The notes beneath the pieces were generated by a model. That model saw only the letters and a program-made list of their open reading frames with translations, was not told the DNA's origin and did no database searches. Shown here piece by piece: positions 3,205-31,595 of a stretch of 32,000 nucleotides of DNA; position 1 is the first letter of the stretch, and each line of letters begins with the position of its first letter. The stretch is taken from positions 1,680,001 through 1,712,000 of the forward strand of contig NZ_CP179200.1 of assembly GCF_051201565.1 (NCBI RefSeq), read 5' to 3'. The position numbers were made by a program, and so were the translations under genes. This DNA is from Pseudothioglobus sp. nBUS_23 (GTDB lineage: Bacteria > Pseudomonadota > Gammaproteobacteria > PS1 > Pseudothioglobaceae).

Positions 3205-3226
3205 TAACTTCTCTCTTTCAGTTCTT

Positions 3227-3598: not shown

Positions 3599-3617
3599 TA
3601 CCTCTCCTTATTAATGT

Positions 3618-4742: not shown

Positions 4743-4852
4743 TAGATTTTGTCTCAAAAAAACAATATTATATAAGATTAGTCTTTTTAGTTGAATTCAA
4801 TTGCCCATGAATTCATATAAATAAATTGATTACTAGAAACTAAATGTAAATC

Positions 4853-6879: not shown

Positions 6880-7043
6880 TTTGTAGCTTATTTGTCAATA
6901 AAATATGGAGTTAGTGTTTGTATTATAGTTAATTACTTGATGATAAAAGTGCTCTAAAACAATTCAACATTTAGTGAATTTTTTAATGGCTAGAGTTTAT
7001 TTCATAATGTAGAATGGCAATTTTTTGTGTCATTAAATTTACC

Positions 7044-10880: not shown

Positions 10881-10887
10881 AAATTTA

Positions 10888-11874: not shown

Positions 11875-13322
11875 TATGGATTACCGCTAAAAATATAAGA
11901 GGTTTTGACCTGTGTATAAAGCTCTTTAGCATATGAACCTTGCTCTCTAGGACCAAAACTTGAATTTTTTCTACCACCAAACGGGACATGATAGTCTGTG
12001 CCAGCAGTTGGAAGATTAACCATAACGCATCCACTCTCTGCATTTCTTCTGAAGTGGCTTGCTGTAGACAATGACTGGGTGATAATCCCTGAAACCAGTC
12101 CAAAGTCAGTATCATTTGCAACTGATAGTGCTTCATCATAGTCCGCAACCTTAATGACACATGCCATAGGCGCAAAAAGCTCTTCCCGATTAACCCTCAT
12201 TGAGTTGTTTCCACCAATTAATAAGGCTGGCTGCATATAGAAACCTGGATTATCTAGTTCGAGTTTTTCTCCACCACAGACGACTTCGCATCCTTCTTCT
12301 TTAGCTAGTGCCATATATTTAAGGTTAGAGTCAAGTTGTTGCTGACTTGCAGCTGGACCGATTTGAGTTCCCTCTTGAAGAGCGTCCCCCACCTTGAGAG
12401 CAGAAGTTGATTCTTTCATACGATCCACAAACTCATCATGAATGGAGGCATGAACGACCAGCCTTGATGACGCGGTACACTTTTGTCCAGTAGATCCAAA
12501 AGCACCCGCTGTTGCTGCTGCAACTGCAACATCCATATCCGCATCATCCATTACAACGAGAGGGTTCTTAGAGCCCAACTCTAACTGAAACTTTGTTAAA
12601 TTTTTTGACGCCGCACTCGCAATCTGAAGACCTACGTCGTAAGAACCAGTAAAGCTTATTGCGTGCACCTTAGGGCTCTCAGCTAATGATTGACCGATTG
12701 ATGATCCAGACCCCATGACCAAGCTGAATAAACCTTTTGGAATGTCTTGCTTTGAGATAATTTCAGTTAATGCTACCGCACTTGCAGGTGTTAGGTTCGC
12801 AGGCTTCCATATAACAGCATTGCCAAAGGCTAGTGCTGGCGCAATTTTCCAGCTCGCTGTTGCAGTTGGAAAGTTCCATGGTGAGATAATTGCAACAGTC
12901 CCCATAGGCTCACGACGAACATCAATTTCAATATTCGGTCTGACTGAATCAGCTGTATCACCACCCTGTCTTAAAACTTCAGCTGCGTAGTAAGTAAAAA
13001 ATTGGCCTGCCCTGTAAACTTCTCCTTTGCCCTCTGCTACAGGCTTGCCTTCCTCTCTAGAAAGGAGCTCACCGAGCTCAGCACTGCGAGCCATCATCTC
13101 TTCACCAATCTTCATTAATACGGCTTGACGCTGCTCCAGGCCTGTTGCAGCCCATTGTCTTTGTGCAACCTGCGCCGAATTGAGAGCATCCTCTAATTGA
13201 GCACTGCTAGCTTGAGCAAATTCTCCAATAATATCATTTGTATTGGATGGATTAATATTCGAGATTGAACTTGCGCCTTTTACCCAGTCGCCCGCTATGT
13301 AGTTATTAGAAAGATTAGACAT
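11874..13322 (-). CDS. NAD(P)+-dependent aldehyde dehydrogenase, alpha-ketoglutarate-semialdehyde-dehydrogenase-like subgroup
   Basis: 482 aa. It has the catalytic Glu motif ELGSKNP and the catalytic Cys motif GQKCTASSR. The N-terminal NPSNTNDIIGEFAQAS resembles KGSADH/YcbD-type ALDHs as I recall them. Its stop overlaps the ATG of the next gene by 1 nt (TAATG). Confidence 0.88.
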   Translation of the reverse strand: MSNLSNNYIAGDWVKGASSISNINPSNTNDIIGEFAQASSAQLEDALNSAQVAQRQWAATGLEQRQAVLMKIGEEMMARSAELGELLSREEGKPVAEGKGEVYRAGQFFTYYAAEVLRQGGDTADSVRPNIEIDVRREPMGTVAIISPWNFPTATASWKIAPALAFGNAVIWKPANLTPASAVALTEIISKQDIPKGLFSLVMGSGSSIGQSLAESPKVHAISFTGSYDVGLQIASAASKNLTKFQLELGSKNPLVVMDDADMDVAVAAATAGAFGSTGQKCTASSRLVVHASIHDEFVDRMKESTSALKVGDALQEGTQIGPAASQQQLDSNLKYMALAKEEGCEVVCGGEKLELDNPGFYMQPALLIGGNNSMRVNREELFAPMACVIKVADYDEALSVANDTDFGLVSGIITQSLSTASHFRRNAESGCVMVNLPTAGTDYHVPFGGRKNSSFGPREQGSYAKELYTQVKTSYIFSGNP

Positions 13323-13492: not shown

Positions 13493-15034
13493 ATGTCAAC
13501 CTCTGCAGAAAGACTCGGTCGAGCAGCAAGAAGATCTGACCGTCTGAAAGTAAAAATTGAAATGCTCCCTACTCTGAAGAGAAATATCCCTCTTACTGAG
13601 CCGATGAATGAAGAGCAGATTGAGAAAATGGATGATGCTTCATTATCCATTCTGGAAGAGGTTGGTGTAGAATTTCATGATCCTATTGCACTAGAACAAT
13701 GGAAGGAAGCTGGAGCTAATGTAGAGGGTGAGAGGGTGCGCTTCGATAGAGGCCTGATTCGTGAACTAATAGCGTCTATTCCAGAAAGCATCACAATGCA
13801 TGCGCGAGATCCAGAGAAGTCACTAGAAATTGGTGGTAATAACTCTATATTTGTCCCAATGACAGGGGCGCCTTTCCTTACCGACCTTGAAAATAATAGG
13901 CGCATGCCTACGCTGGATGATCTTGCTAATTTTCATAAGCTTTCTCACATGCTCCCTGCTATTCATTCAAGCGCCCATCACATCGTAGAACCCATGGATC
14001 ATGCAATTTCTCATAGGCATCTAAGAATCACTTATTCATCCATGAAACACTCTGATAAAACCTTTATGGGGATGACTAGTAGTGGCAAGAATGCTGAAGA
14101 TGTAATTGAGATGTGCAAGATTCTCTTTGGTGAAAAGTTCATAGATAGTCATGCCGTTGTTACTGGAAATATTAATGGAAACTCTCCACTGGTATGGGAT
14201 CAAACTATGCTCTCTGCACTGAGAGTTTTTTCTGCCCACAATCAGCCAGTGCTCTGCTCTCCTTTTGTTCTTGGTGGCGCTAACACTCCAGCCAGTGTTG
14301 CTCCAACTGTGGCACAAGTCAATGCGGAGGCTTTATCAGCACTCGCATACACTCAGGTTATCCGAAAAGGAGCACCTGCGATCTATGGTCATTATTTAGC
14401 TACAGTATCAATGCAGTCTGGTGCTCCAATGGCAGGGACGCCCGAAATCTCTCTAATGAACTTTATGATTGGTCAAATGGCAAGACATTATAAAGTTCCC
14501 TGGAGAAGCTCAAATACTTTGGGTGGCTCAAAAGTATTCGATGCTCAATCAGGATATGAGAGTGCATCAACAATGATGGCTGTTCTTTTATCTGGTGCAA
14601 ACTATATTTGGCATTCTGCAGGATGGAATGAGGCAGGAATGCACTGCTCAATGGCAAAATTTGTGGTGGATGCAGAGCAGTGTGAAATGGGATATAGAAT
14701 GGCTGAAGGAGTTCGATGGGACGACTTTGAGGAGGGTCTAGCTGCGATTAGAGATGTAGGTCCTGGTGGTCATTACCTGGGTCATCAGCACACAATGGAG
14801 AACTTTCAAAGGGCCTTTTTTATGCCTAAACTATTTGACAATAATTCTGTTGAGCAATGGCAGGCTGATGGAAGCAAAGATACAATTCAAAGAGGACTTG
14901 AAGGAGCAAAAAAACTACTTGAAGATTATCAAGAACCAAAGCTGGATGAAGCAAAAGATGAAGAGCTCTTGGATTACATCGCTAAAAGGGAAACAACAAT
15001 TCCTAAAATGGAGGCGCTGAATCAGGAGCATTAG
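13493..15034 (+). CDS. Non-pyrrolysine MttB-superfamily methyltransferase (quaternary amine/betaine methyltransferase-like), paralog 1
   Basis: 513 aa, the length of the trimethylamine methyltransferase family. It has a basic N-terminus (GRAARRSDR) and blocks shared with paralog 2: NSPLVWD, HNQPV, GAPAIYG, GAPMAGTPE and LLEDYQEPKL. There is no in-frame TAG. Confidence 0.82.
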   Translation: MSTSAERLGRAARRSDRLKVKIEMLPTLKRNIPLTEPMNEEQIEKMDDASLSILEEVGVEFHDPIALEQWKEAGANVEGERVRFDRGLIRELIASIPESITMHARDPEKSLEIGGNNSIFVPMTGAPFLTDLENNRRMPTLDDLANFHKLSHMLPAIHSSAHHIVEPMDHAISHRHLRITYSSMKHSDKTFMGMTSSGKNAEDVIEMCKILFGEKFIDSHAVVTGNINGNSPLVWDQTMLSALRVFSAHNQPVLCSPFVLGGANTPASVAPTVAQVNAEALSALAYTQVIRKGAPAIYGHYLATVSMQSGAPMAGTPEISLMNFMIGQMARHYKVPWRSSNTLGGSKVFDAQSGYESASTMMAVLLSGANYIWHSAGWNEAGMHCSMAKFVVDAEQCEMGYRMAEGVRWDDFEEGLAAIRDVGPGGHYLGHQHTMENFQRAFFMPKLFDNNSVEQWQADGSKDTIQRGLEGAKKLLEDYQEPKLDEAKDEELLDYIAKRETTIPKMEALNQEH

Positions 15035-15037
15035 ACT

Positions 15038-15805
15038 ATGGACAAAGATAAATCAAATGTTGTTCTTGTGACCGGAGCCAATGGCGGCATTGGAAAAGCT
15101 ATAGTAAATAAATATTCACGGCAAGGTTTGACACTAGCAATTGCTGATAAGGACGAAGAACAGGCTAACAAACTTGTGCATGAAATCAATCGCGGCAATG
15201 GAAAGGCAATGGCATTCCCTGGAGACCTACTGGATCAAAATTATTCTGATAACCTTGCTACTGAGGTCAAAGAAAAACTGGGTAGCATTGACATACTCAT
15301 TAATAATGCTGGCTTAATGAGGCGTGGTGATATTACTCAAACCAGTGATGAGGATTATGAGCTTTCTATGAAGATTAACGTTGAGGCTCCATTTAGATTA
15401 ATTCGAGCATCGATTCCCCTTATGGTTGAGTCTGGTGGAGGCTCTATCGTGAATATTTCATCATGCTGGGGAATTAACCCAGGACCAAATCATCTAATTT
15501 ACTGTACGACAAAAGCAGCCTTGGCAGCAATGACAAAATGCTTGGGCAGAGATCACGCACATCAAAACATTCGAATTAATGCAGTATGCCCTAATGAAGT
15601 CAATACGCCAATGCTGAGAACGGGCTTTGAGATCAGAGGATTAAATCCTGATGATGCTATTAGAGAATTAAATCAATCAGTTCCAATTGGCCATATTGCT
15701 GAGCCGGAGGAGATTGCTGATGTTGTGGCTTTTCTCAGTTCAGATGAAGCTCGATATATTTGTGGATCCTTAGTGGAGATCAATGGTGGAAAAGCGGTTT
15801 ACTAA
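15038..15805 (+). CDS. Short-chain dehydrogenase/reductase (classical SDR)
   Basis: TGANGGIGKAIV cofactor motif, NNAG, Ser in NISS, and catalytic YCTTKAALAAMTK (Y-x3-K). SD AGGAG lies 9 nt upstream, and the gene starts 3 nt after the mttB-family stop. Confidence 0.88.
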   Translation: MDKDKSNVVLVTGANGGIGKAIVNKYSRQGLTLAIADKDEEQANKLVHEINRGNGKAMAFPGDLLDQNYSDNLATEVKEKLGSIDILINNAGLMRRGDITQTSDEDYELSMKINVEAPFRLIRASIPLMVESGGGSIVNISSCWGINPGPNHLIYCTTKAALAAMTKCLGRDHAHQNIRINAVCPNEVNTPMLRTGFEIRGLNPDDAIRELNQSVPIGHIAEPEEIADVVAFLSSDEARYICGSLVEINGGKAVY

Positions 15806-16529
15806 TAAAGTTGTCGTTGTTACAGGAGCCACAAAAGGGATTGGTTTGGCCTGCGCAGAACGACTGAAAAAGGAAGGTGCAATCGTGTGTGTTATTCAAA
15901 GAGGTCACTCAAGTCTCTTTGATTCTTTTGAGTTTGATTTAAGTAAAGAACAAGACTGCTCTGTGAGCATTGATGCCATTATTAAAAAGCATGGTCGTAT
16001 TGATGTTTTAGTTAATAATGCTGGAATGATGAAAGAGTCATCAATTCTTGATACTTCTCTTGAAGAATGGAATAAAACTTTGGCGGTAAATCTTACAGCT
16101 CCTTTTTTGCTTACGAAGGTTTGCATGCCTTTTCTGATCAGGTCAAAAGGCTCTATTGTGAATATTGGTTCAATTGAAGGTATTGGCGCTAATCCGAATC
16201 ACGCATCCTACTGTGCAAGTAAGGCAGGGCTTCATGGTCTTACGCGCGCCATAGCGGTTGACCATGGGAAGGATGATGTGAGATGCAACGCAGTAGCGCC
16301 GGGATGGATAGATACCGAGTTGAACGAAGAATTTATTAATTCGATGCCAGATTCAGAGCAATTTAGAAATAATATTGGAAGTATCCACCCAGTAAATAGA
16401 ACAGGCAAAACAGAAGAAGTTGCCTCTTTAGTTGCTTGGCTTGCATCAACAGAATCAAGTTTTGTAACAGGGCAGGTATATACTATTGATGGAGGCAGGA
16501 TGGCAAAAATTAGCCTGCCAACTCTTTAG
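15783..16529 (+). CDS. Short-chain dehydrogenase/reductase (classical SDR), second copy
   Basis: TGATKGIGLACA, NNAG, NIGS and YCASKAGLHGLTR. The ATG at 15783 is preceded by GTGGAG and overlaps the preceding SDR by 23 nt. Confidence 0.86.
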   Translation: MVEKRFTNKVVVVTGATKGIGLACAERLKKEGAIVCVIQRGHSSLFDSFEFDLSKEQDCSVSIDAIIKKHGRIDVLVNNAGMMKESSILDTSLEEWNKTLAVNLTAPFLLTKVCMPFLIRSKGSIVNIGSIEGIGANPNHASYCASKAGLHGLTRAIAVDHGKDDVRCNAVAPGWIDTELNEEFINSMPDSEQFRNNIGSIHPVNRTGKTEEVASLVAWLASTESSFVTGQVYTIDGGRMAKISLPTL

Positions 16530-16566
16530 GAGAATTTATGAACTTTGTCGGTAGATTAAATTAGAA

Positions 16567-17919
16567 ATGGGTCAGATTAAGCTTCCTAAAAATCCTGGTG
16601 ATACAGGCTGGAAAGAAATCCTTCCTGAGAGGAAGGTCAATCCAAAGCTTTCAGATCATCTCAATGCAGACTTCTTGATTATTGGCGGAGGCTTTGCTGG
16701 CCTCTCTGCAGCTAGGCGTTTAATTCAAATCGATTATAAAGCAAAAATTGCTCTGCTCGAAGCCTGTGAAATTGCGGAAGGCCCCGCTGGTAGAAACTCG
16801 GGCTTTATGATTGACTTACCACACAACTTAGCTTCAGATGATTACGTAGGAAGCCTAGATAAAGATCGTGAACAAACTCTCATTAATCGCTCTGCAATTG
16901 AATTTGCTAAAAGCGCCTCTGAAGAATACGAAATGCCTACTGAGGCAATTCAGCTGGTTGGAAAAACGAACGCAGCAGCCACCCCAAAAGGAATGAATTT
17001 CAATACAGAGTATGCAAAGCATCTGGACAAGACAAGTGAAAGCTATAAGATGCTAGACTCTCAAGAAATGAAAGACCTGACTGGAATAGATTATTATCTA
17101 AACGGTCTATGGACACCAGGGACTGCAATGCTACAACCAGCGCTTTATATTCAGTCACTAGCAGATGGCGTCTCTAAGAGTCCCAATACAACGATTTATG
17201 AAAACTCTCCGGTCATTTCTCTTGAAGAGGAAGGAATGCATGATGGACAAAAAGTATGGAAAGCTAAAACCAGTCTTGGATCAATATCAAGCCCAAAAGT
17301 TATTTTAGCAGTCAACGGATTAGTTGAAAAATTTGGATACTTTCAGAATAGGTTAATGACTATTTTTACCTACTCATCCCTATCAAGAGAGCTAACTTCT
17401 GAAGAGTCAAATATGCTGGGCGGCACTCAAGATTGGGGATTAACTTCAGCTGACGCTATGGGCTCTTCAGTAAGGCGCATTTCTGGAATCGGCGGTAATA
17501 GAATCCTGGTTCGAAATAGATGGTCATACAATCCAAGCATGGAAGCCTCAGATTCATTTATGAGTGCAGCTGCTAATAGTCATAATGAATCATTTAAAGC
17601 ACGCTTTCCAATGCTTGATAAAGTGTCTATGAACTACTCATGGGGAGGACGTCTTTGCCTGAGTCTCAACAACGTCTTTGCTCAGGGTGAGGTTGACGAA
17701 GGCATCTACTCTGCGTGCTGTCAAAATGGTCTTGGGACTGCCAAAGGAACTGCGATTGGTGTCATTACAGCTGAAAAAATAACTGGAACCGTCAATAGCC
17801 TTATTCCCGACTTTGTTGACGAAGAAGGGCCAAAAAAATTAATGCCGAAACCATTCATGTGGTTTGGTGTTAATAGCTATATGCGTTGGAAAGAGCTTAT
17901 GGCAGGAAAAGAAAAATAA
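16567..17919 (+). CDS. FAD-dependent oxidoreductase, DAO family (amine/amino-acid oxidase or dehydrogenase-like)
   Basis: 450 aa. It has the N-terminal dinucleotide fold DFLIIGGGFAGLSAARRL followed by GRNSGF. Overall it resembles PuuB/OrdL-type flavoproteins. Confidence 0.78.
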   Translation: MGQIKLPKNPGDTGWKEILPERKVNPKLSDHLNADFLIIGGGFAGLSAARRLIQIDYKAKIALLEACEIAEGPAGRNSGFMIDLPHNLASDDYVGSLDKDREQTLINRSAIEFAKSASEEYEMPTEAIQLVGKTNAAATPKGMNFNTEYAKHLDKTSESYKMLDSQEMKDLTGIDYYLNGLWTPGTAMLQPALYIQSLADGVSKSPNTTIYENSPVISLEEEGMHDGQKVWKAKTSLGSISSPKVILAVNGLVEKFGYFQNRLMTIFTYSSLSRELTSEESNMLGGTQDWGLTSADAMGSSVRRISGIGGNRILVRNRWSYNPSMEASDSFMSAAANSHNESFKARFPMLDKVSMNYSWGGRLCLSLNNVFAQGEVDEGIYSACCQNGLGTAKGTAIGVITAEKITGTVNSLIPDFVDEEGPKKLMPKPFMWFGVNSYMRWKELMAGKEK

Positions 17920-17939
17920 CTTATTCTAATAACTCTTCA

Positions 17940-19016
17940 TTATGGCAAGAGAACCAACTTACCCACATACTTCTTTGATACAAAGTCTTTTTGAGCAGCA
18001 ATAATATCTTTTAAAGGATAAGTCTTAGAAACGAGGGGTGTTATTTCGTTTCTTTCGATATATCCAATTAAATTTTCAAAAACTTTTCGATCTTGAAAAG
18101 TACACCCTATCAAAACCAAGTCTTTTAAGTAAAGTGTTCTAATATCAAGTTCAACAATTGGTCCTGCGATAGCCCCAGCTGCTGCATACCTTCCACCTTT
18201 TTTTAATACATCTAGCAAATCTCCCCAGCGCTCCCCTGCAACTAGATCAATAACCACATCAATACTCTCATTTTCTATAGAGTCTGTTAATTTATCCTCT
18301 CTATTAACAACGGCATTTGCACCGATCTCTTGTACTAAATCTGACTTCGCTTTACTTGAAACCGCAACAACACTAGCGCCCCGTCTCTTAGCCAGCTTTA
18401 TAGCAGCTGACCCAACACCTCCAGAAGCTCCAGTTATAAGAACAACTTCACCCTCTTTAACACCTGAACGCTCCATTAGGTTTTCTGCTGTCGAGTATGC
18501 ACAGGGTATAGATGCCAGTTCCGCATTCGACCAATTACTTTCAACCTTGAAACTTTCATCACTAAAAGCGACCATATACTGAGCAAAAGCCCCGTCACAC
18601 TCAGAGCCCATTGTCCAGCACTCATAGGGCCTGTAATCTACTGCATACTGCTGCATTGTCCTAACCAATACTCGCTCACCAATTCGACCAGCATCGACAT
18701 CATCTCCAACAATAACGATTTCTCCATAGCAGTCTGCGCCCTGAATGATTGGAAATTCTAAAGGCTCACCAGACCAACTTCCATCTCCATCTTCCCCTTG
18801 GGAATTACTAGCGTTGGTTTCGCCTTTGACTGACTTTGAATACCAAGCAGTTCGGGTGTTAATATCGGTATTGTTGATACCTGCCCCTAAAACCTTGATC
18901 AAAACTTGATCTGAATTAGGGGTGGGGACTTCAATGTCATTTCGGTACTCAAGCACCTCATAACCACCATGGCCAGTTGTCAAAACTGCGTTCATTGTTT
19001 TTGGGATTATGCTCAT
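17940..19016 (-). CDS. Medium-chain dehydrogenase/reductase (MDR) family oxidoreductase, quinone-oxidoreductase-like
   Basis: 358 aa, with the GroES-like N-domain (VLIKVLGAGINNTD) and the Rossmann motif VLITGASGGVGSAAIKLAKRRGA. I saw no obvious structural-zinc Cys cluster. Confidence 0.8.
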   Translation of the reverse strand: MSIIPKTMNAVLTTGHGGYEVLEYRNDIEVPTPNSDQVLIKVLGAGINNTDINTRTAWYSKSVKGETNASNSQGEDGDGSWSGEPLEFPIIQGADCYGEIVIVGDDVDAGRIGERVLVRTMQQYAVDYRPYECWTMGSECDGAFAQYMVAFSDESFKVESNWSNAELASIPCAYSTAENLMERSGVKEGEVVLITGASGGVGSAAIKLAKRRGASVVAVSSKAKSDLVQEIGANAVVNREDKLTDSIENESIDVVIDLVAGERWGDLLDVLKKGGRYAAAGAIAGPIVELDIRTLYLKDLVLIGCTFQDRKVFENLIGYIERNEITPLVSKTYPLKDIIAAQKDFVSKKYVGKLVLLP

Positions 19017-19020
19017 GCTT

Positions 19021-20070
19021 CTAATTATTATTTGAAAATTTAATTATAGTATTTGAAGTGTAGGTTTCGCCCACTTTTAAAATTGGGCTTTCAAAGTTAT
19101 CCTGATTGATTGCGTCAGGAAAAAATTGAGTTTCCATACAAAGACCATAATTTTTTCCATAAGTTCTCTGATTCTTGCCTTGGTACTCAGGATGCATGTT
19201 GCCACCCGTATAAAACTGAAGTCCAGGTTGGTCACTTGAGTACTGAACCCCCATCCCTGTTAGATTACTCCATACCCTTGCCACTGGCTTCATTTCTTTT
19301 TCGTTATTAACAACATAGTTAATATCAATACCGCCTTGATCTATAAGCTCTTTCGAAATAGGGTTGCTTTCTAGGAAGTCATATTTGGTATTAGCAACAT
19401 TTAAGAGATTGCCATTGGGTATTAGGTCTGACTCTACCTCACAAACCTGATTCCCAAAAATCTGAGCACTATGGTTAAGAATTTTTCCATAATAATCATT
19501 GTGACCATGAAAGTTCCAATAGTTATGATTCGTAATGTTGACAATAGTGTCTTCATCTGTCGTAGCCGAGTAACAAATTGAAAATTCGTTCTTGCTATTG
19601 AACTTATATTGAGTAGTGCAGGATAAATTACCAGGATATTTTTCTTCTAGATGTGAAGATAGATAGGACATTGATACGATGACTTCGTCTTTATTCTCAT
19701 CAATTGAATCTATCGACCAAAGCCTCTTATTAAAGCCTGTGCTTCCTCCATGAAGATGATTATTTCCATTGTTATTATTTAATTTATATTTTTTATTGTT
19801 AAGTGTAAATTTAGCATCCTTCATTCGATTGCAGACTCTTCCAGTAATTACATTGAAAAAGCTTCTATCCGTTATACAACCTAAAGGATCTTCATAGCCG
19901 AGAATTACATCCTCAGTTAATTCTGGATTATTTTCATAAGGAATTAAAACTTGATGGATATAGCCACCGAAATTTGAAAATGAAACACTGAAATTATTTT
20001 CATTTGTAATACTAACAAGATAAATAGCCTGATTATCTATGCTAGAAATTAATTCTTTGGTAATTTTCAT
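19021..20070 (-). CDS. galM: Aldose 1-epimerase (mutarotase) family protein
   Basis: 349 aa with the three catalytic-site motifs: NHLHGG, NITNHNYWNF and CMETQFFPDA. Confidence 0.85.
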   Translation of the reverse strand: MKITKELISSIDNQAIYLVSITNENNFSVSFSNFGGYIHQVLIPYENNPELTEDVILGYEDPLGCITDRSFFNVITGRVCNRMKDAKFTLNNKKYKLNNNNGNNHLHGGSTGFNKRLWSIDSIDENKDEVIVSMSYLSSHLEEKYPGNLSCTTQYKFNSKNEFSICYSATTDEDTIVNITNHNYWNFHGHNDYYGKILNHSAQIFGNQVCEVESDLIPNGNLLNVANTKYDFLESNPISKELIDQGGIDINYVVNNEKEMKPVARVWSNLTGMGVQYSSDQPGLQFYTGGNMHPEYQGKNQRTYGKNYGLCMETQFFPDAINQDNFESPILKVGETYTSNTIIKFSNNN

Positions 20071-20102
20071 ATGTTCTTGAGTAGAAATTAATCTCTTAAA
20101 GT

Positions 20103-21419
20103 TTAGCTTAACAAATCTTTTTCAAATGGATAACTTGTTAATAGTTCATAGCCACTTTCAGTGATTAACACCTGCTCTTCAAGTTTCACACCAGGTCCTC
20201 CGCTATATCTTCCAACATAAGTCTCAACACACATCACCATCCCAGGCTGAAGAACCCCGTCAAAACTGTTCTCATTGAGCTCCCAGCTAAATGGTATTGC
20301 AGGAAACTCATCACACAAACCTACGCCATGAAAAAGGACCGAGTAATGGCGAAACTCATCCTTTGAGTACTCTTTAGAGTTCAGTGTTAACTCTTTAAAT
20401 GTGGTGCCTGGTTTTAACAACTCGATATTGTTTTGAATTTGCTCATAGCCCATGGTATAGATTTCTCTTTGCTCATCATTAGGCTTTTCATCACCACATA
20501 GCCATGTCCGAGACATATCAGTACAGTAGCCGTAAGAGCCAACTAGGTCTGTATCAAAACCCATTAATTCGCCGCTTAATATAGGTCGAGATGAACACTC
20601 CTGATACCAAGGGTTTGCTCTGGGGCCCGAAGCGAGTAATCTAGTCTCAATCCACTCTGCCCCCCTTGAAACTGCCTCCATTTGAAAACGACTCCAAAGC
20701 TCTTGCTCAGTTATGCCTGGCTTAAAATGATGACGCATCAGCTCCATAGACTTTTCACATGAAAAGATTGAGCGCCTCATGGCCATCATCTCGTCATCCG
20801 ACTTAATGAGCCTAGCGAGCTCCATCACCTCTTCACCATTTGCAAGTTCTAGGCCATTTGACTGAAGCTCGTGAATCCCTTCAGGTGCACAGTGATCGAG
20901 AGCCAATCTTTTATTGCCTTTGCCATGCTCCTTGACTATATCAACAATTTCAGATGCCCATATCTTGGCCCTCTCTTTACTCTTATCTCCAGCAGTAAAA
21001 TATAGATACGTGACGGCATGTCTGACTTCAGTAATTAAGGGGTTGTGATTAGAAAGAAACTCATGTGCATCAAACTCAAAAATAATGACAGGGCCTTCAG
21101 TCATAACAAGCGCGTAACGAGCAGCGTTATGGGATGTCCACAAAGACATATTGGTGCTGTCCGTTGCATAGCGAATATTTAATGGGTCATAGAGAAGAAT
21201 ACCGGCACAGTCAAATTCAACAAGTTTTTCTCGAACTCTTTTGAGTCGATAATCCCTAATTTTGGTCATATCTGGATTGGCTAACCCAGCCTTTAGCCAT
21301 TCTGACTCAGCAAGCTCTCCTGGACCGAGTGCATGTTTATTTAGACTGTAAATATCCTCTTCACCTTTTAGGTGAGAGCCTATTTTTGCATGATGTCTTT
21401 TAGCTGCTGTAAAACTCAT
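20103..21419 (-). CDS. dddP: M24 metallopeptidase-fold protein, DddP-like (candidate DMSP lyase)
   Basis: 438 aa. It has the blocks LLYDPLNIRYATDSTNMSLW, EWIETRLLASGPRANPWYQEC, FDTDLVG and KLEEQVLITESGYELLTSYPF. Putative metal ligands are D289/D291/D301/H364/E399/E414, with spacing 2/10/63/35/15. DddP as I recall it has D295/D297/D307/H371/E406/E421. SD GAGGA lies upstream. Confidence 0.55.
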   Translation of the reverse strand: MSFTAAKRHHAKIGSHLKGEEDIYSLNKHALGPGELAESEWLKAGLANPDMTKIRDYRLKRVREKLVEFDCAGILLYDPLNIRYATDSTNMSLWTSHNAARYALVMTEGPVIIFEFDAHEFLSNHNPLITEVRHAVTYLYFTAGDKSKERAKIWASEIVDIVKEHGKGNKRLALDHCAPEGIHELQSNGLELANGEEVMELARLIKSDDEMMAMRRSIFSCEKSMELMRHHFKPGITEQELWSRFQMEAVSRGAEWIETRLLASGPRANPWYQECSSRPILSGELMGFDTDLVGSYGYCTDMSRTWLCGDEKPNDEQREIYTMGYEQIQNNIELLKPGTTFKELTLNSKEYSKDEFRHYSVLFHGVGLCDEFPAIPFSWELNENSFDGVLQPGMVMCVETYVGRYSGGPGVKLEEQVLITESGYELLTSYPFEKDLLS

Positions 21420-21436
21420 TTAATAATCCTCAATCG

Positions 21437-23851
21437 TCACCTCATTTTAGATCCAGACGGATCATAAAGGGGCTCCATAACAATAGATGCCTCTCTGAAC
21501 TCTCCCAATATCTCGACTTCAAGTTTTGCATTGGACTCAATTAATTCAACTGGAAGATAGGTCATGGCAAGAGATTTTTTAACCGAATGTCCATAGCCCC
21601 CTGAAGTAATATAAGAGACACACTCACCATTATGCATTACAGCCTCGTCACCACTGACATCGGTATCAGTATGAATTTGAATTACTGAAAGCTTTTTGCT
21701 TGGTCCATTCTTTTTCTCAGTTAAGGCTGCTTTTTTGCCTATAAAGTCCTTGTCCCAGTCCACAAAAAAATCAAGCCCTGACTCCATTATTGTAAAGTCT
21801 GGCCTAAAGTCCATAGTCCATGCGCCCCAACTCTTCTCAAGCCTCATAGACATCAACGCTCTTCCGCCAAACCACTTGAGATCCAGGTCCGCTCCAGCAT
21901 CTTCTATAGCCTCAAAGAGTTTCAGTTGGTACTGAGGGGCCACATAGATCTCATAGCCAAGCTCTCCTGTAAATGAAATTCTTACGCAGAGTGATGGCAC
22001 GCCTCCAATAAATGTGTCCCTGATATCTCTGAATTTAAATGCTTCAGAGTGCACATCTTCTCGAGTAAGCCTTGATAACAATTCTTGAGAGTTTGGACCC
22101 GATATTGCAATGCCATGAAAGTCATCTGTCATATTTTTATAAACAACATCTTGAACCCCCTCAAGATGCTTCTCAAACCAGCGAAGATGCATATTTTGGG
22201 CGACGCTTGAGCCAAACAAATAGTAGGTTTCTTCATCAATACAGGCGACTGTGAGGTCGCCGTTCAGCTTTCCACTCTCTAAAAGCATAGGTGTCAGATT
22301 CACCCTTCCAGGGCTTGGAATTCGACCCGCTAATACCTTATTCAAAAACGCTTTAGCACCCTTACCCGTAAACTTATGATTAGCAAAGTTCGCTACTTCA
22401 CTTGCTCCAACAGAGGCTCTAACCGCTTCAACTTCCTTAGCCACATAATCATGAGATCTTGACCTTTGAAAGGTTGGCTCTTCATAAGCATCCTCAGGGG
22501 AGTTAGCAAACCAAAGAGCATTTTCAAGTCCAAAAGTATCCTGCCATACTGCACCTTTTTGAGTCAAGCGATCATAGATTGAAGTAGTTTTTTGAAGCCT
22601 TCCTTTAGGCAAGGTTTCGTTAGGGAAAGTCATCACAAAGCGGCGCTCATAATTTTCAGAAGACTTGATTACGCCCCATTCAGGCGTTGCAAAATCTCCA
22701 AATCGCGCAATATCCATAGCCCAAACATCAACTGACGGCTCACCCTCAATCATCCATTCGGCTAATGTTTTACCAACGCCACCTGCTTGGCAGAATCCTG
22801 CCATGACGCCAACAGCTGTCCAGTAGTTTTTCATACCAGGAACAGGACCAATCATCGGGTTTCCATCAGGTGAGAAAACAAATGGGCCATTTATAATATT
22901 CTTAATGCCAGCTGTTCCTAATGCCGGGATTCTCTCAAATGCAAGCTCCAATCGATCGGCAATTCGGTCCAAGTCTGGCTCTAGTAGATCATGTCCAAAG
23001 GTTTGTGGTGTGCCATCCAAAGACCATGGGGTTGATCGAGGTTCATAAGTTCCCAGCAACATGCCAGTGCTCTCTTGACGGGTATAAATATTGGCCTCGA
23101 AGTCAATGCAACTTGGCAGTCTTTGGCCATCCTTTAAGTTAGCAATTTGGTCAATCTCTTCAGTAATTAAGTAGTGATGCTCCATGGGCACCACTGGCAA
23201 ATGTATTCCAGACATACGACCCAGCTCACGAGCCCAAAGACCGCCAGCATTTACAATATGTTCTGCATGGATATTGCCCTTTTCGGTCACAACATCCCAC
23301 GAACCATCTGCTCTTTGATTGGTTTCTATAACTGGTGTATGCGTATAAAACTCTGCGCCATGAACTCTAGCTGATTTGGCATAAGCATAGACAACTCCTG
23401 AAGGATCAATGTCACCATCAGATGGATCCCAAAGGGCAGCAACATAATGATCAGGATCAATTAATGGATGCTTTTCTACAACCTCATCAAGAGAGACAAA
23501 CTCCTGATTTAAACCCAATGATCTTGCATTAGAGCGCTCTCGTTTAAGGTAGTCATGCCAATTTTGATTTGAGGCTAAGTAGTAACCTCCCGTCGTATGC
23601 ATACTAATTGAATGGCCGGAGGTCTCTTCAATTTCTTTATATAGATTGATTGTATAGTCTTGGAGTTTAGAAACATTAGGATCAGAACTGACTGTATGAA
23701 ACGAGCCAGCAGCGTGCCAACTTGAACCCGAAGTTAGCTCATCTCGTTCTAAAAGAATGACATCCTTCCATCCCATTTTTGCAAGGTGAAAAAGGATTGA
23801 GCAGCCAACAACGCCGCCTCCAATTACAACCACTCTTGCCTGATCTTTCAT
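21437..23851 (-). CDS. Dimethylglycine/sarcosine dehydrogenase-type flavoenzyme (FAD DAO domain fused to a GcvT-like folate-binding domain)
   Basis: 804 aa. The N-terminus has VVVIGGGVVGCSILFHL and the covalent-flavin His motif SSWHAAG. The C-terminal roughly 350 aa are aminomethyltransferase-like (FTGELGYEIY). Confidence 0.85.
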   Translation of the reverse strand: MKDQARVVVIGGGVVGCSILFHLAKMGWKDVILLERDELTSGSSWHAAGSFHTVSSDPNVSKLQDYTINLYKEIEETSGHSISMHTTGGYYLASNQNWHDYLKRERSNARSLGLNQEFVSLDEVVEKHPLIDPDHYVAALWDPSDGDIDPSGVVYAYAKSARVHGAEFYTHTPVIETNQRADGSWDVVTEKGNIHAEHIVNAGGLWARELGRMSGIHLPVVPMEHHYLITEEIDQIANLKDGQRLPSCIDFEANIYTRQESTGMLLGTYEPRSTPWSLDGTPQTFGHDLLEPDLDRIADRLELAFERIPALGTAGIKNIINGPFVFSPDGNPMIGPVPGMKNYWTAVGVMAGFCQAGGVGKTLAEWMIEGEPSVDVWAMDIARFGDFATPEWGVIKSSENYERRFVMTFPNETLPKGRLQKTTSIYDRLTQKGAVWQDTFGLENALWFANSPEDAYEEPTFQRSRSHDYVAKEVEAVRASVGASEVANFANHKFTGKGAKAFLNKVLAGRIPSPGRVNLTPMLLESGKLNGDLTVACIDEETYYLFGSSVAQNMHLRWFEKHLEGVQDVVYKNMTDDFHGIAISGPNSQELLSRLTREDVHSEAFKFRDIRDTFIGGVPSLCVRISFTGELGYEIYVAPQYQLKLFEAIEDAGADLDLKWFGGRALMSMRLEKSWGAWTMDFRPDFTIMESGLDFFVDWDKDFIGKKAALTEKKNGPSKKLSVIQIHTDTDVSGDEAVMHNGECVSYITSGGYGHSVKKSLAMTYLPVELIESNAKLEVEILGEFREASIVMEPLYDPSGSKMR

Positions 23852-23946
23852 AATAAATCTATCTAATTAAAATTAAATGTTAATTTAAAAAACAGCGAAA
23901 CTCAAGTTAAAAAATTTAGTCAAAAATATTGAAAAAATTTAGCTCC

Positions 23947-25473
23947 TTATAAAGGTGGTGCGCCGCCTTCTGATACTCTTTTATCTACAAAACTTGAGAG
24001 TTCCTCTTCAACCTCAGATGCAAGTTTAGGTTCTTTGTAATCAGCCAAGAGCTGCTTCCATATTTTATTAGCGCGCTGAGAAGCAGTCTCAGAGCCTGCA
24101 TCTCTCCATGACTCAAAATTTCTCCAATCAGACAATAGAGGGTTGTAGTGTTCTGTTTCATATCGATCCAATGTTTGCTGAGCTGCAAAAAAATGAGCGG
24201 CAGGACCCACTTCCGCAATTGCCTCAACACCAAGCGTGTCTTTATTGACAGGAGAGGGGGTTAAAAAAGCCTCCATCATTTGACTCATCTCTGCATCCAA
24301 AATGACCTTCTCATAAGACGCACAGAGCCCGCCTTCAATCCAACCATGTCCGTGTAGGATAAAATTGACTTGCCCTAAAAGACAGGCCCATAATGACATC
24401 TGAGATTCATAAACGGACTGCTCATCTGCAGCATTCGAGGCATTTGCATTAGAGGCGCGAAGTGGGATTTTATATTTTCTTGCAAGCTGTCCACTTACAA
24501 TTGTGGCCTGTGTATATTCTGGCGTCCCAAAGGCAGGGGAGCCTGATTTCATGTCAACATTAGATGTAAAGCTTCCATAAATTGCCGGAGCACCTGGATT
24601 TACGCATTGATGAAAAGTAAGTCCAGCAAGAGACTCTGCATTCTGCTGGACAAGAGCTCCTGCAACAGTAATAGGCGCCATAGCGCCAGCCAAAGTGAAT
24701 GGGGTATAGATTACTGGCTGATTATGCTCAGCCATTTCGATTGCTCCCTCCATAAGGGCTTTATCATAAACTAGAGGTGAGTTCGCATTGACGACAGTCG
24801 TAATTGAAGGCTCTTTTAAAAGCGTTTCTTGATCAATGCCTCTTGAAATTCGAACTATTTCAATGGCATCTAACATTCTCTCACTGCCAATAGCATAACC
24901 AAATAGAGGTTTTGTGGATAATCGAGCGGCAGCTGATACCGCATGTAAATGGCGCTCTCTGACATCTAAGTCGCATGGCTCAACTGGGTAACCGCCTAGA
25001 GCATGCACAGTATTCAAGATTTCACCAAGCCTGATCAGGTTTGAGTAATCTTCAAAGTTACCCAAGATACGTCCTCTGTCAAGATCAGAAACGTTTGGAG
25101 CACTCGAGACCATGGTATTGATAAAGGACTGACCTCCAACATGAACATGCCTCTCTTTATATCTGCCATGAAGAGTAAATTCACTTGGGGTAGTGGAAAT
25201 TTTTTCCATCACGAAGTCTGGATCAAACCTAACACGTCTTCCATCACCCCCAATCATTGCGCCTTCTCTTTTGAGAATTTCGACTGCACGCGGTGACTGA
25301 ATATCCATCCCTGTGTCGCACAACACTTTCAATGACGCCTGATGAATTGACTCAATCTCATCTTCTGAAAAGATTGACATAGGTTGAAAGGGATTCTTTT
25401 TTTGACCGTAAGGAGCCTGCTGAAAGTTTGTAACTTCTCTAACGTTTTTACTTCTACCTCTTCTCACTGGCAC
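23947..25473 (-). CDS. Non-pyrrolysine MttB-superfamily methyltransferase, paralog 2
   Basis: 508 aa with the same family blocks: NSPLVYD, HNQPV, GAPAIYG, GSPAFGTPE and LLADYKEPKL. There is no in-frame TAG. The start codon at 25473 is GTG (PVRRGRSKN...). The basic N-terminus parallels paralog 1, so I kept it, but the start is uncertain. The next ATG is at residue 32. Confidence 0.8.
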   Translation of the reverse strand: MPVRRGRSKNVREVTNFQQAPYGQKKNPFQPMSIFSEDEIESIHQASLKVLCDTGMDIQSPRAVEILKREGAMIGGDGRRVRFDPDFVMEKISTTPSEFTLHGRYKERHVHVGGQSFINTMVSSAPNVSDLDRGRILGNFEDYSNLIRLGEILNTVHALGGYPVEPCDLDVRERHLHAVSAAARLSTKPLFGYAIGSERMLDAIEIVRISRGIDQETLLKEPSITTVVNANSPLVYDKALMEGAIEMAEHNQPVIYTPFTLAGAMAPITVAGALVQQNAESLAGLTFHQCVNPGAPAIYGSFTSNVDMKSGSPAFGTPEYTQATIVSGQLARKYKIPLRASNANASNAADEQSVYESQMSLWACLLGQVNFILHGHGWIEGGLCASYEKVILDAEMSQMMEAFLTPSPVNKDTLGVEAIAEVGPAAHFFAAQQTLDRYETEHYNPLLSDWRNFESWRDAGSETASQRANKIWKQLLADYKEPKLASEVEEELSSFVDKRVSEGGAPPL

Positions 25474-26551: not shown

Positions 26552-28156
26552 TCACATCCCATTTAATATCATTCTAGCTCCTCGCTCAGCAATCATCATC
26601 GTTGGGGCAGAGGTATTACCACTCACAATGCTTGGCATGACCGAGGCATCGATCACTCTAAGGTTACTCATACCTTTTACTTTTAAATCAATTGGTGAGA
26701 CGACTGCTAAATCATCGGTGCCCATCTTACAGGTTCCAACTGGATGATAAACTGTAAGGGATGTCCGACGAATATAAGCCAATAGCTCCTCATCTGACTG
26801 AACAGATTGTCCTGGAGCCATCTCCTCTCCTCGCACCTCATCAAACTCTTTAGATGACAAAACTTCTCTCGCTTTTTTGATGGCCTCAACAATATTTGCC
26901 TCATCTCTAGAGTCAGATAAAAAGTTGTGATCAATCAGGACTTGATATTTGTTACCATCACTCTTTAACTTAACTGAACCCTTGCTATGAGGCCTCAATA
27001 AACAAGTAAACAATGAGTAGCCATGACCGAACTCAAATTTTCTTCCTCGGTGGCTACGATATATAGGCGTAAAGTGAAACTGGACATCTGGATATTCAGG
27101 TGTTCCTAGTTTTGTAGCTGCAAAACCGCCAGCCTCAACAAAATTACTCGTCCACCAACCCATTCTTCTCAAAAGAAAGCTTAAAGGCGAGGTCATTACT
27201 TGAGGTAAAAATGATCTCCACGAAACTCCAATAGATTCTGCCTTGTTTGAGCGAACCGTTACCATGGTATCCAAATGGTCCTGAAGGTTTTCTCCAACTC
27301 CAGGAACATTATGGTGGCATGTAATTCCTTCCTTTTCAAGCTCCTTCTTATTGCCTATTCCAGAAGACAAAAGTATCCTTGGTGACTCGATAGCGCCAGC
27401 AGATAGCACTACTTCTTTATTACAATACAATTCTTTATCAACACCGTTAACTTGAAGTTTAATGGATTTGGCAGTATCGCCATCAATTTCAATTGATTCT
27501 ACCCTTGCATGAGTCATTGTCGTTAGGTTAGATCTCGAAATAATGGGCTCAATAAAGGCTCTGTAAGAATTTACCCGAGTCCCCTTATCTTGATTTACCT
27601 TATAAATACCGAGGCCTAATTGAGAGGCATCATTGAAATCAGTGTTATGAGAGAGGCCTACATGAGCCGCAGACTTTACAAAGCGTTTAGCAGTCTTATT
27701 AATATCTTGTGGCATAACAACTGGCCACTCTCCATCTTTGGAATGGTACTTTGAATCTCCTCCTGTTTGATCTTTTTCAAGAGATTTAAAGATTGGTAAA
27801 ACATCATTATAAGACCAACCTTTGCATCCAAGTTTTTCCCAATTATCATAATCATTCTTATTGCCTCGGATATAAATCATGCCATTAATAGAGCTTGAAC
27901 CCCCAAGACATCTGCCTCGGTTAACCGTGATGACTCGGTCATTTAAGTGCTTTTGAGGAACGCCCTTGTAGGCATAATCAAGTTTTTTATGATCATAAGC
28001 AACAGAGAGGCCGGCAGGAATTTTGACCCAAGGACTTTTATCACTTCCGCCGCCCTCAATAAGACAAACTGTATTATTAGGATTTTCACTGAGACGATTA
28101 GCCAATACGCAACCAGCAGAACCTGCGCCTATAACAATATAATCGAATGTTTCCAT
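26552..28156 (-). CDS. GMC-family FAD oxidoreductase (choline/alcohol dehydrogenase-like)
   Basis: 534 aa, with N-terminal DYIVIGAGSAGCVLANRL, then GGSSSINGMIYIRG and GVGENLQDH. The C-terminal active-site region is HPVGTCKMG...RVIDASVMP. Confidence 0.88.
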   Translation of the reverse strand: METFDYIVIGAGSAGCVLANRLSENPNNTVCLIEGGGSDKSPWVKIPAGLSVAYDHKKLDYAYKGVPQKHLNDRVITVNRGRCLGGSSSINGMIYIRGNKNDYDNWEKLGCKGWSYNDVLPIFKSLEKDQTGGDSKYHSKDGEWPVVMPQDINKTAKRFVKSAAHVGLSHNTDFNDASQLGLGIYKVNQDKGTRVNSYRAFIEPIISRSNLTTMTHARVESIEIDGDTAKSIKLQVNGVDKELYCNKEVVLSAGAIESPRILLSSGIGNKKELEKEGITCHHNVPGVGENLQDHLDTMVTVRSNKAESIGVSWRSFLPQVMTSPLSFLLRRMGWWTSNFVEAGGFAATKLGTPEYPDVQFHFTPIYRSHRGRKFEFGHGYSLFTCLLRPHSKGSVKLKSDGNKYQVLIDHNFLSDSRDEANIVEAIKKAREVLSSKEFDEVRGEEMAPGQSVQSDEELLAYIRRTSLTVYHPVGTCKMGTDDLAVVSPIDLKVKGMSNLRVIDASVMPSIVSGNTSAPTMMIAERGARMILNGM

Positions 28157-31390: not shown

Positions 31391-31595
31391 ATTTACTCTC
31401 CTATTTATACTCAATTAAATACTCTTAGTATCACATCGAATGACCTTAAATCTTCATTTTGCATACGATTGCAATGAATTATAACACAGTCTATATTAAT
31501 ATATAAATAATTTTGCATTCGTATTCAGAATATTCCTTTAGAATTTTTTTAATACTAATTAGCCTCATTATTGAACACTATTTTTCAGAATTCCA
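31391..31595. promoter_or_regulatory. Probable promoter/operator region for the transporter operon
   Basis: 205-bp AT-rich spacer. It contains TTGCA-N6-TGCAA (31459-31474), a second TTTTGCAT copy at 31511-31518, the palindrome TATTCAGAATA (31522-31532) and a second TTCAGAAT at about 31584-31591. I could not identify a clear -35/-10 pair. Confidence 0.3.

Follow-up and report, generated by a model that had tools for sequence, protein, structure and literature searches.

Two MttB paralogs of the non-pyrrolysine branch

The window analyzed here, a 32-kb stretch of contig NZ_CP179200.1 with a G+C content of ~40%, encodes two methyltransferases of the MttB superfamily, MttB1 and MttB2, but no corrinoid protein that could take over the methyl group. 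The locus thus raises the questions of which protein serves as methyl acceptor and from which substrates the methyl group is removed, both of which were left open in the initial annotation. The first is largely superseded by a model for aerobic bacteria in which the corrinoid protein MtgC and the pterin methyltransferase MtgD are unlinked to the MttB genes, while the second was justly raised. By its sequence, the window is assigned to a gammaproteobacterium of the Thioglobaceae (SUP05/Arctic96BD-19; Thioglobus/Pseudothioglobus).

The best explanation, which by analogy with this model we consider probable as a whole, is an MtgBCD-type modular demethylase with an unlinked shared partner, encoded in a ~75 kb catabolic island for methylated osmolytes of which the window forms the center. 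Each MttB paralog would act as a substrate-specific module of this cobalamin-dependent system and remove a single methyl group from its substrate, an acidic quaternary amine bound via a conserved Arg and His. The methyl group would be passed to the Co(I) of MtgC, a corrinoid protein that the paralogs would share and the gene of which would lie elsewhere in the genome; from MtgC, MtgD would hand it to tetrahydrofolate (THF) for subsequent oxidation or assimilation; the tertiary-amine product would be processed by the adjacent flavoenzymes. The findings extend the model published in 2025 and do not overturn current understanding: the unlinked MtgC/MtgD arrangement in aerobes is already known. 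SUP05/Arctic96BD-19 bacteria are among the most abundant heterotrophic/mixotrophic lineages of the ocean interior and of polar waters. The presence of three MttB paralogs in one osmolyte island would imply that several quaternary amines, glycine betaine being just one of them, are demethylated via one B12-dependent hub, which would tie algal osmolyte turnover and the release of ammonium and one-carbon units to the supply of vitamin B12.

MttB1 (513 amino acids, ATG start, positions 13493-15034, plus strand) matched PF06253 (MTTB) with 716 bits at profile positions 3-499 of 500, and MttB2 (508 amino acids, GTG start, positions 23947-25473, minus strand) with 602 bits at positions 2-500; both matches are full-length (497-499 of 500 profile positions). 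The scores to the pyrrolysine-MttB equivalog TIGR02369 were 292 and 315 bits, respectively, at a cut-off of 525 bits. Neither gene contains an in-frame stop codon, and Pyl334 of Methanosarcina barkeri MttB (X in structure 7XCL) was aligned to an Ala in MttB2. On these grounds, both proteins are placed in the non-pyrrolysine branch of the superfamily, as the initial annotation had concluded from their uninterrupted reading frames. Its statement that the paralogs share only short conserved blocks needs correction, as the two are divergent but 34% identical over the full length; the different substrates it suggested for them are probable.

MttB1 was 99% identical to a protein of the uncultured gammaproteobacterial single-cell genome AG-390-E17; with proteins from Ca. 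Thioglobus and from the single-amplified genome (SAG) AAA007-O20 of Arctic96BD-19, the identity was 83-97%. Proteins encoded nearby carry the NCBI names Pseudothioglobus or Ca. Thioglobus. The best match among solved structures was Sinorhizobium meliloti 4YYC (502 bits for MttB1, 313 bits for MttB2). Matches to Desulfitobacterium hafniense MtgB of the same superfamily scored 309-339 bits, and a TIM-barrel fold is predicted for the window paralogs.

The corrinoid partner is most likely encoded elsewhere in the genome

The 26 open reading frames (ORFs) of at least 100 amino acids in the window were scanned with Pfam, and none of them contained a B12-binding (PF02310/PF02607), pterin-binding (PF00809), DUF1638, or RamA-type domain. 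A six-frame scan of the window revealed no DxHxxG...SxL...GG motif, and Rfam identified neither a cobalamin riboswitch nor any other RNA family in it. Pfam and motif scan therefore agree with the earlier statement that no B12-binding, pterin-binding, or activase ORF is present in these 32 kb, and the statement also holds for the ~75 kb island.

In the aerobic Ruegeria pomeroyi, knockouts of mtgC and mtgD abolish the use of glycine betaine (Mausz et al., PNAS 2025, PMC12478193). The MttB-family proteins MtgB1 (SPO2108) and MtgB2 (SPO2134) of this organism are induced on N-osmolytes; the genes for the corrinoid protein MtgC (SPO2160) and the pterin methyltransferase MtgD (SPO1863), two proteins that also serve as a split methionine synthase, lie apart from the MttB genes, as do those for the co-induced RamA (SPO2041) and DUF1638 protein (SPO2162) (PMC12478193). 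A matching growth defect on glycine betaine was described for an mtgB1 knockout of Phaeobacter inhibens, the mtgB2-4 genes of which are described as uncharacterised (bioRxiv 10.64898/2025.12.19.695462). With the genetics of these two aerobes, the notion that all characterized non-pyrrolysine members derive from anaerobes, on which the initial annotation had relied, is outdated. The R. pomeroyi study reports mtgC for SUP05/Ca. Thioglobus, and its Dataset S2 lists Arctic96BD-19/SUP05 SAGs with MtgC (64-67% identity) and MtgD (53-57%), mostly without MetH; the same SAGs have an "MtgB1" match of 56-58% and an "MtgB2" match of 47-49% identity (PMC12478193). Up to seven PF06253 paralogs were counted per genome, for which the authors propose other methylated substrates (PMC12478193).

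The system of the window resembles MtgBCD(E) of R. pomeroyi and P. inhibens in several respects: non-pyrrolysine PF06253 proteins, several paralogs in an aerobe, no linkage to the corrinoid and pterin modules, a setting among dimethylglycine dehydrogenase (DMGDH), sarcosine oxidase, glycine cleavage, and SdaA functions, and SUP05/Thioglobus among the listed carriers. It differs in that the window paralogs are probably not orthologs of MtgB1 and MtgB2, as judged from the ~56% and 47-49% identity of the SUP05 matches and from the other genomic context, and in that the equivalent of Y97 of D. hafniense MtgB is lost. Because the partners are unlinked in R. pomeroyi and SUP05/Arctic96BD-19 SAGs are reported to contain MtgC and MtgD, the lack of a linked partner is, by analogy, the normal arrangement in aerobes and no evidence for a new methyl acceptor. 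The corrinoid partner of the window paralogs is most likely encoded elsewhere in the genome, a conclusion that rests on the published SAG table for the clade. The Arenicellales genome L010 encodes an MttB1 ortholog (76% identity) at a distance of 5 kb from an MtgC-DUF1638-MtgD cluster; DUF1638 and MtgD adjoin MtgC in both L010 and L109.

Our own searches did not reveal MtgC in this lineage. No corrinoid or pterin-binding (MtgC, MtgD), RamA, or DUF1638 genes were found across the ~75 kb from TrpB to Adk. In a protein search with the L010 MtgC, the matches listed were taken up by closer relatives with at least 88% identity and included no Thioglobus MtgC, and a codon-biased DNA pattern scan of metagenomes gave no Thioglobus-like MtgC among the matches listed. 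A search of representatives for a low-GC MtgC seed yielded none, and the low-GC MtgC-like genes retrieved by a scan of IMG/VR were phage-borne.

These negative results would fit a pathway without a dedicated corrinoid protein, in which the methyl group is transferred directly to THF, to free cobalamin, or to another methyltransferase. A protein of the latter type is the core-MetE-like Meth_synt_2 protein (375 amino acids, L085:4921-6048), the gene of which lies on the MttB2 strand in the same long cluster, little over 5 kb past the window end. Core-MetE-like enzymes can accept the methyl group from methylcobalamin, and the Meth_synt_2 protein could serve as second methyltransferase. In such a variant, free or scavenged cobalamin would deliver the methyl group to this protein and thereby couple osmolyte demethylation to the methylation of a thiol or of homocysteine. 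We regard a pathway without corrinoid protein, in any of these forms, as very improbable. Every characterized family member methylates a corrinoid (PMC13080624, PMC12478193), and the mtgC/mtgD knockouts abolished glycine betaine use in an aerobe with likewise unlinked MttB genes (PMC12478193). Moreover, SAGs of the clade itself reportedly contain homologs of MtgC and MtgD (PMC12478193), and the MttB1 ortholog of L010 is physically linked to MtgC-DUF1638-MtgD.

MtgC-like corrinoid-binding proteins were also observed in marine myovirus genomes (L221-L234 and L236-L241; IMG/VR and metagenome contigs, 33.5-38% G+C). They were 72-78% identical to one gammaproteobacterial MtgC, and their genes are sited between those for tail-sheath, T4 gp13-like, and terminase proteins. 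The myoviral gene is possibly an auxiliary metabolic gene for B12-dependent methyl transfer.

Active-site residues of the MttB paralogs

In D. hafniense MtgB, Y97 and F356 form cation-π contacts with glycine betaine, and R312 and H348 bind its carboxylate; the Y97A exchange raises the Km ~340-fold (Picking et al., JBC 2026, PMC13080624). The Eubacterium limosum enzymes MtcB, MtpB, MtyB, and MthB share R312 and, less consistently, H348 with MtgB, but not its aromatic pair (PMC13080624). The sequences were aligned with structure 9YCE as reference (chain index + 2 gives the published numbering). At positions 97, 312, 348, and 356, Y/R/H/F of D. hafniense MtgB correspond to T/R/H/G in MttB1, S/R/H/G in MttB2, Y/R/Q/G in MttB3, the third paralog of the island, and Y/R/H/G in S. 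meliloti 4YYC. Position 352 is outside the published binding residues and was included since Trp is conserved there in all compared proteobacterial sequences (among them MttB1, MttB2, MttB3, and 4YYC), where D. hafniense MtgB has Ile. The residues of MttB1 were invariant in 74 orthologs.

Thus, both window paralogs contain the carboxylate-binding pair R312/H348; in place of the aromatic pair Y97/F356, MttB1 has T/G and MttB2 has S/G. Because the former pair is kept and the latter exchanged, MttB1 and MttB2 resemble demethylases that act on onium compounds with a carboxylate group and in which the cation pocket has been remodelled. With D. hafniense MtgB (DSY3156; PDB 2QNE/9YCE), which functions together with MtgC and MtgA, they share the superfamily, the predicted TIM-barrel fold, and R312 and H348; they differ from it by an overall identity of only 35-38.5% and by the altered aromatic pair, and MtgB derives from an anaerobe with a linked corrinoid protein. 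The enzymes of E. limosum for proline betaine (MtpB), carnitine (MtcB), γ-butyrobetaine (MtyB), and phosphocholine (MthB), which were compared by description, offer a parallel to several paralogs per genome, each with its own acidic quaternary amine and all with one shared corrinoid protein; they are likewise conserved in R312 but not in the aromatic pair, the difference being that E. limosum is an anaerobic acetogen. The putative trimethylamine methyltransferase 4YYC has Gly at position 356 and Trp at position 352 as the window paralogs do, but it is only 47% (MttB1) and 34% (MttB2) identical to them, has kept Tyr97, and is closer to MttB3 (51% identity).

An alternative to be weighed here is a conventional glycine betaine system, in which one or both window paralogs act as MtgB and feed dimethylglycine to the DMGDH-like enzyme, sarcosine oxidase, the glycine cleavage system, and serine dehydratase. 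The conserved R312 and H348 are in line with it, as is the scoring of the SUP05 MttB homologs as MtgB1 (56-58%) and MtgB2 (47-49%) (PMC12478193). The loss of Tyr97 to Thr or Ser is not, given the effect of Y97A on the Km of MtgB (PMC13080624). The loss of F356 has to be read with caution: Gly at position 356 and Trp at position 352 were found in all proteobacterial sequences, including MttB3 and 4YYC, which are both likely betaine enzymes. Because these two also contain Gly at this position, the exchange of F356 alone is no argument against glycine betaine as substrate.

The properties of MttB3 point to another candidate for glycine betaine demethylation. MttB3 (511 amino acids, L214:4318-5853, plus strand) is encoded ~12.4 kb past the window end (~44.4-45.9 kb in window-equivalent positions), where its gene adjoins those for a carnitine dehydrogenase (3HCDH + 4HBT_2) and a β-keto acid cleavage enzyme (BKACE). 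Carnitine dehydrogenase and BKACE together yield glycine betaine. Because Tyr97 is kept and these two genes are adjacent, MttB3 is likely the best glycine betaine candidate of the three paralogs, as judged from sequence and gene order; it probably accounts for the "MtgB1 56%" match in the SUP05 SAGs. A third paralog with these features argues against the window paralogs as the glycine betaine enzymes. In summary, neither of them looks like a conventional glycine betaine enzyme, and such a system is an unlikely reading of the window. The initial annotation had named two findings that together would make this a conventional system, a co-regulated corrinoid protein/MtgA-type pair elsewhere in the genome and the nesting of both paralogs inside the MtgB clade; a corrinoid/pterin pair elsewhere is likely, but neither paralog has the look of a conventional MtgB.

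MttB1 orthologs are encoded in hydroxyproline-type gene clusters

MttB1 belongs to a tightly conserved orthogroup with 72-78% identity among Alpha- and Gammaproteobacteria, often encoded on plasmids, and present in roseobacters, rhizobia, Cereibacter, and many marine Gammaproteobacteria. In 80 loci evaluated, the orthologs were accompanied by genes for a DAO-type oxidase (57-59 loci), a dihydrodipicolinate synthase (DHDPS)-family protein (45-55 loci), an aldehyde dehydrogenase (ALDH, 53 loci), a GntR/FCD regulator (41-48 loci), and two short-chain dehydrogenases/reductases (SDRs, ~30 loci); an enolase-superfamily gene and a ProVWX transporter occurred occasionally. The combination of D-amino acid oxidase, DHDPS, and ALDH is a known catabolic module for cis-4-hydroxy-D-proline (PMC4113996).

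In the window, MttB1 is directly followed in the same orientation by SDR1 (15038-15805, plus strand) and SDR2 (15783-16529, plus strand), both matching Pfam adh_short. Orthologs of these SDRs (56-68% identity) trail MttB1 orthologs in ~30 loci, one of them on plasmid pB of Cereibacter sphaeroides. The module ends with the gene for a DAO-type FAD oxidoreductase (PF01266; 16567-17919, plus strand; 45-52% identity) that resembles a cis-4-hydroxy-D-proline oxidase or an N-methyl amino acid oxidase.

On plasmid pB of C. sphaeroides 2.4.1, the gene order is MttB, enolase-family gene, SDR, SDR, FAD oxidase, ALDH, DHDPS, GntR, and ProVWX, the last being a betaine transporter of the ProVWX type encoded by the hpb transporter genes. 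The enolase-family gene that abuts the MttB1 ortholog is hpbD (RSP_4007; 671 bits to the HpbD structure 4J1O), the product of which was identified by experiment as proline-betaine racemase/hydroxyproline-betaine 2-epimerase (PMC3950512). In that work, the first demethylation was assigned to the Rieske protein HpbB1C1, and a methyltransferase was never mentioned (PMC3950512). HpbD was adjacent to MttB1 orthologs in seven of the 80 loci and on pB, and an equivalent MttB1-hpb-type cluster is present on a P. inhibens plasmid. MttB1 orthologs thus sit inside the gene set of the Hpb pathway (HpbD, Rieske HpbB1C1, HpbA, cis-4-hydroxyproline oxidase, DHDPS-type deaminase, and α-ketoglutarate semialdehyde dehydrogenase, KGSADH; Zhao 2013, Kumar 2014); the difference is that the published route uses an O2-dependent Rieske demethylase, and that the window has kept only MttB1, two SDRs, and the DAO.

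From these gene neighborhoods, we tentatively propose a proline-type betaine (hydroxyproline betaine or proline betaine) as substrate of MttB1, which would then be the B12-dependent counterpart of the Rieske HpbB/C; the chances of this assignment fall just short of even. It is a possible but rather less than even proposition that the whole orthogroup represents a widespread and unrecognised B12-dependent hydroxyproline/proline-betaine demethylase, parallel to the Rieske HpbBC as MtgBCD is to GbcAB. A literature search revealed no paper linking the MttB1 orthogroup to the demethylation of proline-type betaines, and preprints on Rhizobiaceae and Arctic genomes contained nothing on MttB paralogs. 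If MttB1 indeed uses proline-type betaines, this specificity arose in a different, proteobacterial clade from that of E. limosum MtpB. The orthogroup occurs in experimentally tractable organisms, beside the characterized hpbD, so that a new substrate specificity as well as a cobalt-dependent route in place of the Rieske enzyme can be tested directly.

The cluster context also bears on the glycine betaine alternative, as MttB1 orthologs occur in hydroxyproline-type rather than glycine betaine clusters, and the validated R. pomeroyi enzymes have another genomic context. The genes for R. pomeroyi MtgB1 and MtgB2 stand alone beside guaA and an outer-membrane protein gene. Because of this different context, the MttB1 orthogroup is taken to be distinct from R. 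pomeroyi MtgB1 and MtgB2.

The proposed substrate of MttB1 has to be weighed against the gene content of the window itself. HpbD, DHDPS, KGSADH-type ALDH, GntR, and ProVWX transporter genes were not found beside MttB1, and because these neighbors are missing, the hydroxyproline-betaine pathway is incomplete in this lineage. In the sister Thioglobus lineages L002, L005, and L006, the order is MttB1-SDR-SDR-DHDPS-ALDH-DAO. The window and L001, L003, and L004 are devoid of DHDPS and KGSADH-type ALDH, with only 37 nucleotides between the SDR2 and DAO genes (16529-16567). Because the sister lineages contain DHDPS and KGSADH-type ALDH at the place of this gap, the gene order implies a lineage-specific loss of the hydroxyproline end-pathway.

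MttB2 is paired with a DMGDH-like flavoenzyme

Immediately downstream of MttB2, at a distance of 95 nucleotides, a DMGDH-like, FAD- and THF-dependent (GCV_T) demethylase is encoded (21437-23851, minus strand; Pfam DAO + FAO_M + GCV_T + GCV_T_C). It is followed after 17 nucleotides by the gene for a DddP-like M24 protein (20103-21419, minus strand), which is apparently co-transcribed with the MttB2 and DMGDH-like genes. Upstream of MttB2, a double SnoaL protein, a glucose-methanol-choline (GMC) oxidoreductase, two ATP-binding cassette (ABC) permeases, and a solute-binding protein were assigned with Pfam/NCBIfam between positions 25536 and 31414 on the minus strand, with intergenic gaps of -4 to 95 nucleotides. 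The GMC oxidoreductase (26552-28156, minus strand) is BetA-like but below the NCBIfam cut-off. The solute-binding protein (30161-31414, minus strand) had no Pfam match; its homolog in L088 carries SBP_bac_1/8.

MttB2 belongs to a diverse clade, and the best homologs reached were 44-51% identical. The pairing of an MttB2-type gene with a DMGDH-like gene recurred in four contexts. In L027, L090, and L092, the MttB2-type gene adjoins that for a homologous DMGDH-like enzyme of ~800 amino acids (44-45% identity), and in L092 (Parasedimentitalea) the genes for an M24 homolog (41% identity) and for sarcosine oxidase are also adjacent. L027, an alphaproteobacterial metagenome-assembled genome, represents a near-copy of the window order with MttB2-type, DMGDH-like, DUF3726 protein, 587-amino acid homolog, M19, and MttB1-type genes.

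The position of MttB2 directly upstream of the DMGDH-like gene, the BetA-like GMC oxidoreductase, and the presence of soxBDAG, gcvTHP, and sdaA in the island are what would be expected if MttB2 formed dimethylglycine from glycine betaine. The mutual identity of the DMGDH-like partners, however, is no higher than 44-45%, suggesting that their substrates vary. We therefore return to MttB2 as a module of an MtgBCD-type demethylase with another substrate: likely, MttB2 takes the first methyl group and the THF-dependent flavoenzyme the next one. There is about an even chance that its substrate is a carboxylate onium compound other than glycine betaine, the dimethyl product of which feeds the DMGDH-like enzyme.

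The homology of the M24 protein to DddP would, speculatively, allow a substrate of the dimethylsulfoniopropionate (DMSP) or β-alanine-betaine type. MttB2 would then be a corrinoid-dependent demethylase for DMSP, a related sulfonium compound, or a β-alanine-type betaine, accompanied by an enzyme that would instead cleave this substrate. The DddP homolog encoded two genes downstream of MttB2 (401 bits to the DddP structures 4RZY/4RZZ, 478 bits to the NCBIfam equivalog DddP), the M24 homolog beside the MttB2-type gene of Parasedimentitalea, and the retained carboxylate-binding Arg/His next to a changed cation pocket are consistent with such a role. It is nevertheless quite improbable: the M24 protein scores below the DddP cut-off of 600 bits, the DMGDH-like partner suggests that an N-methyl amine is formed, and we know of no MttB member acting on sulfonium compounds.

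Gene content of the surrounding island

The island was reconstructed by an outward walk from the window with exact-protein look-ups, with TrpB at one end and housekeeping genes and Adk at the other. It encodes three MttB-family paralogs, two of them inside the window, a DMGDH-like enzyme, sarcosine oxidase, creatinase, the glycine cleavage system, and serine dehydratase. The gcvT/H/P genes (352-4757, minus strand) and the gene for L-serine dehydratase SdaA (7014-8423, plus strand), all assigned with Pfam, are candidates for the downstream use of what the demethylases release; on N-osmolytes, R. pomeroyi induces both of these functions (PMC12478193). The flavoenzymes of the DMGDH, GMC, and DAO types and the glycine cleavage genes named in the initial annotation are all present, and its view of the context as oxidative methyl-amine catabolism was correct.

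Past gcvP, an ACT-domain protein, an inositol monophosphatase, creatinase, a DUF1989 protein, two EamA-family proteins, N-methylhydantoinase-type HyuA/B, a Fer2/FAD reductase, and soxBDAG are encoded before the housekeeping genes. Because the genes for creatinase, HyuA/B, DUF1989, Fer2/FAD reductase, and soxBDAG (L081:14244-20995 and L219:1966-16297) flank the window, the island would also cover the catabolism of creatine/creatinine and sarcosine.

Past the solute-binding protein, the genes encode an unknown protein, an RraA-like protein, an alpha/beta hydrolase, the Meth_synt_2 protein, a cupin, SnoaL proteins, LacI, an SDR, an HpsN-like dehydrogenase, an ABC ATPase, BKACE, carnitine dehydrogenase, and MttB3, with TrpB at the end. 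The HpsN-like gene belongs to the histidinol-dehydrogenase family (L085:1-1115 and L214:10001-11311; Joint Genome Institute name sulfopropanediol 3-dehydrogenase) and is grouped with LacI, cupin, SnoaL, GMC, aldose epimerase, and sugar-type ABC transporter genes. Because of this gene and its sugar-type neighbors, part of the cluster may serve 2,3-dihydroxypropane-1-sulfonate or a sugar-/polyol-linked osmolyte and not choline.

The divergent operon opposite MttB1

Divergently from MttB1, a four-gene operon (8425-13322, minus strand) encodes an ALDH (11874-13322) and an M19 dipeptidase-like protein (10888-11874), both identified with Pfam, and two unknown proteins of 587 (9138-10901) and 245 amino acids (8425-9162). 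The latter two had no match in the Protein Data Bank (PDB) and, together with the solute-binding protein (30161-31414), were the three window ORFs without a Pfam match. With an identity to the cluster ALDH of only 32%, the ALDH was rejected as KGSADH of the hydroxyproline pathway. A role of the 587- and 245-amino acid proteins as activase or corrinoid analogs found no support either, as they lack a DxHxxG motif and gave no signal for Fe-S, Pfam, or PDB. A single-sequence AlphaFold model of the 587-amino acid protein was discarded (predicted local distance difference test score 38).

The M19 gene (70-72% identity) and the gene for the 587-amino acid protein (45-49%) also flank MttB1 orthologs in the alphaproteobacterial L027 and L052, where the M19 gene and its partner for a protein of ~580 amino acids were located at L027:6232-9676 and L052:1611-4311. 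At the position of the 245-amino acid protein, L027 has a DUF3726 ORF, and BLAST revealed no similarity between the two proteins. In a comparison of the window with the single-cell genome L001, the unknown ORFs at 8425-10901 were 75% and 86% identical, and the flanking M19 and MttB1 99%; this sequence comparison marks 8425-10901 as a local hypervariable spot.

Between the glycine cleavage genes and sdaA, an adenosine 5'-phosphosulfate kinase fused to a GTP-eEF1A C-terminal-like domain is encoded (5875-6879, minus strand). The fusion protein resembles CysN-C/CysC minus the GTPase domain.

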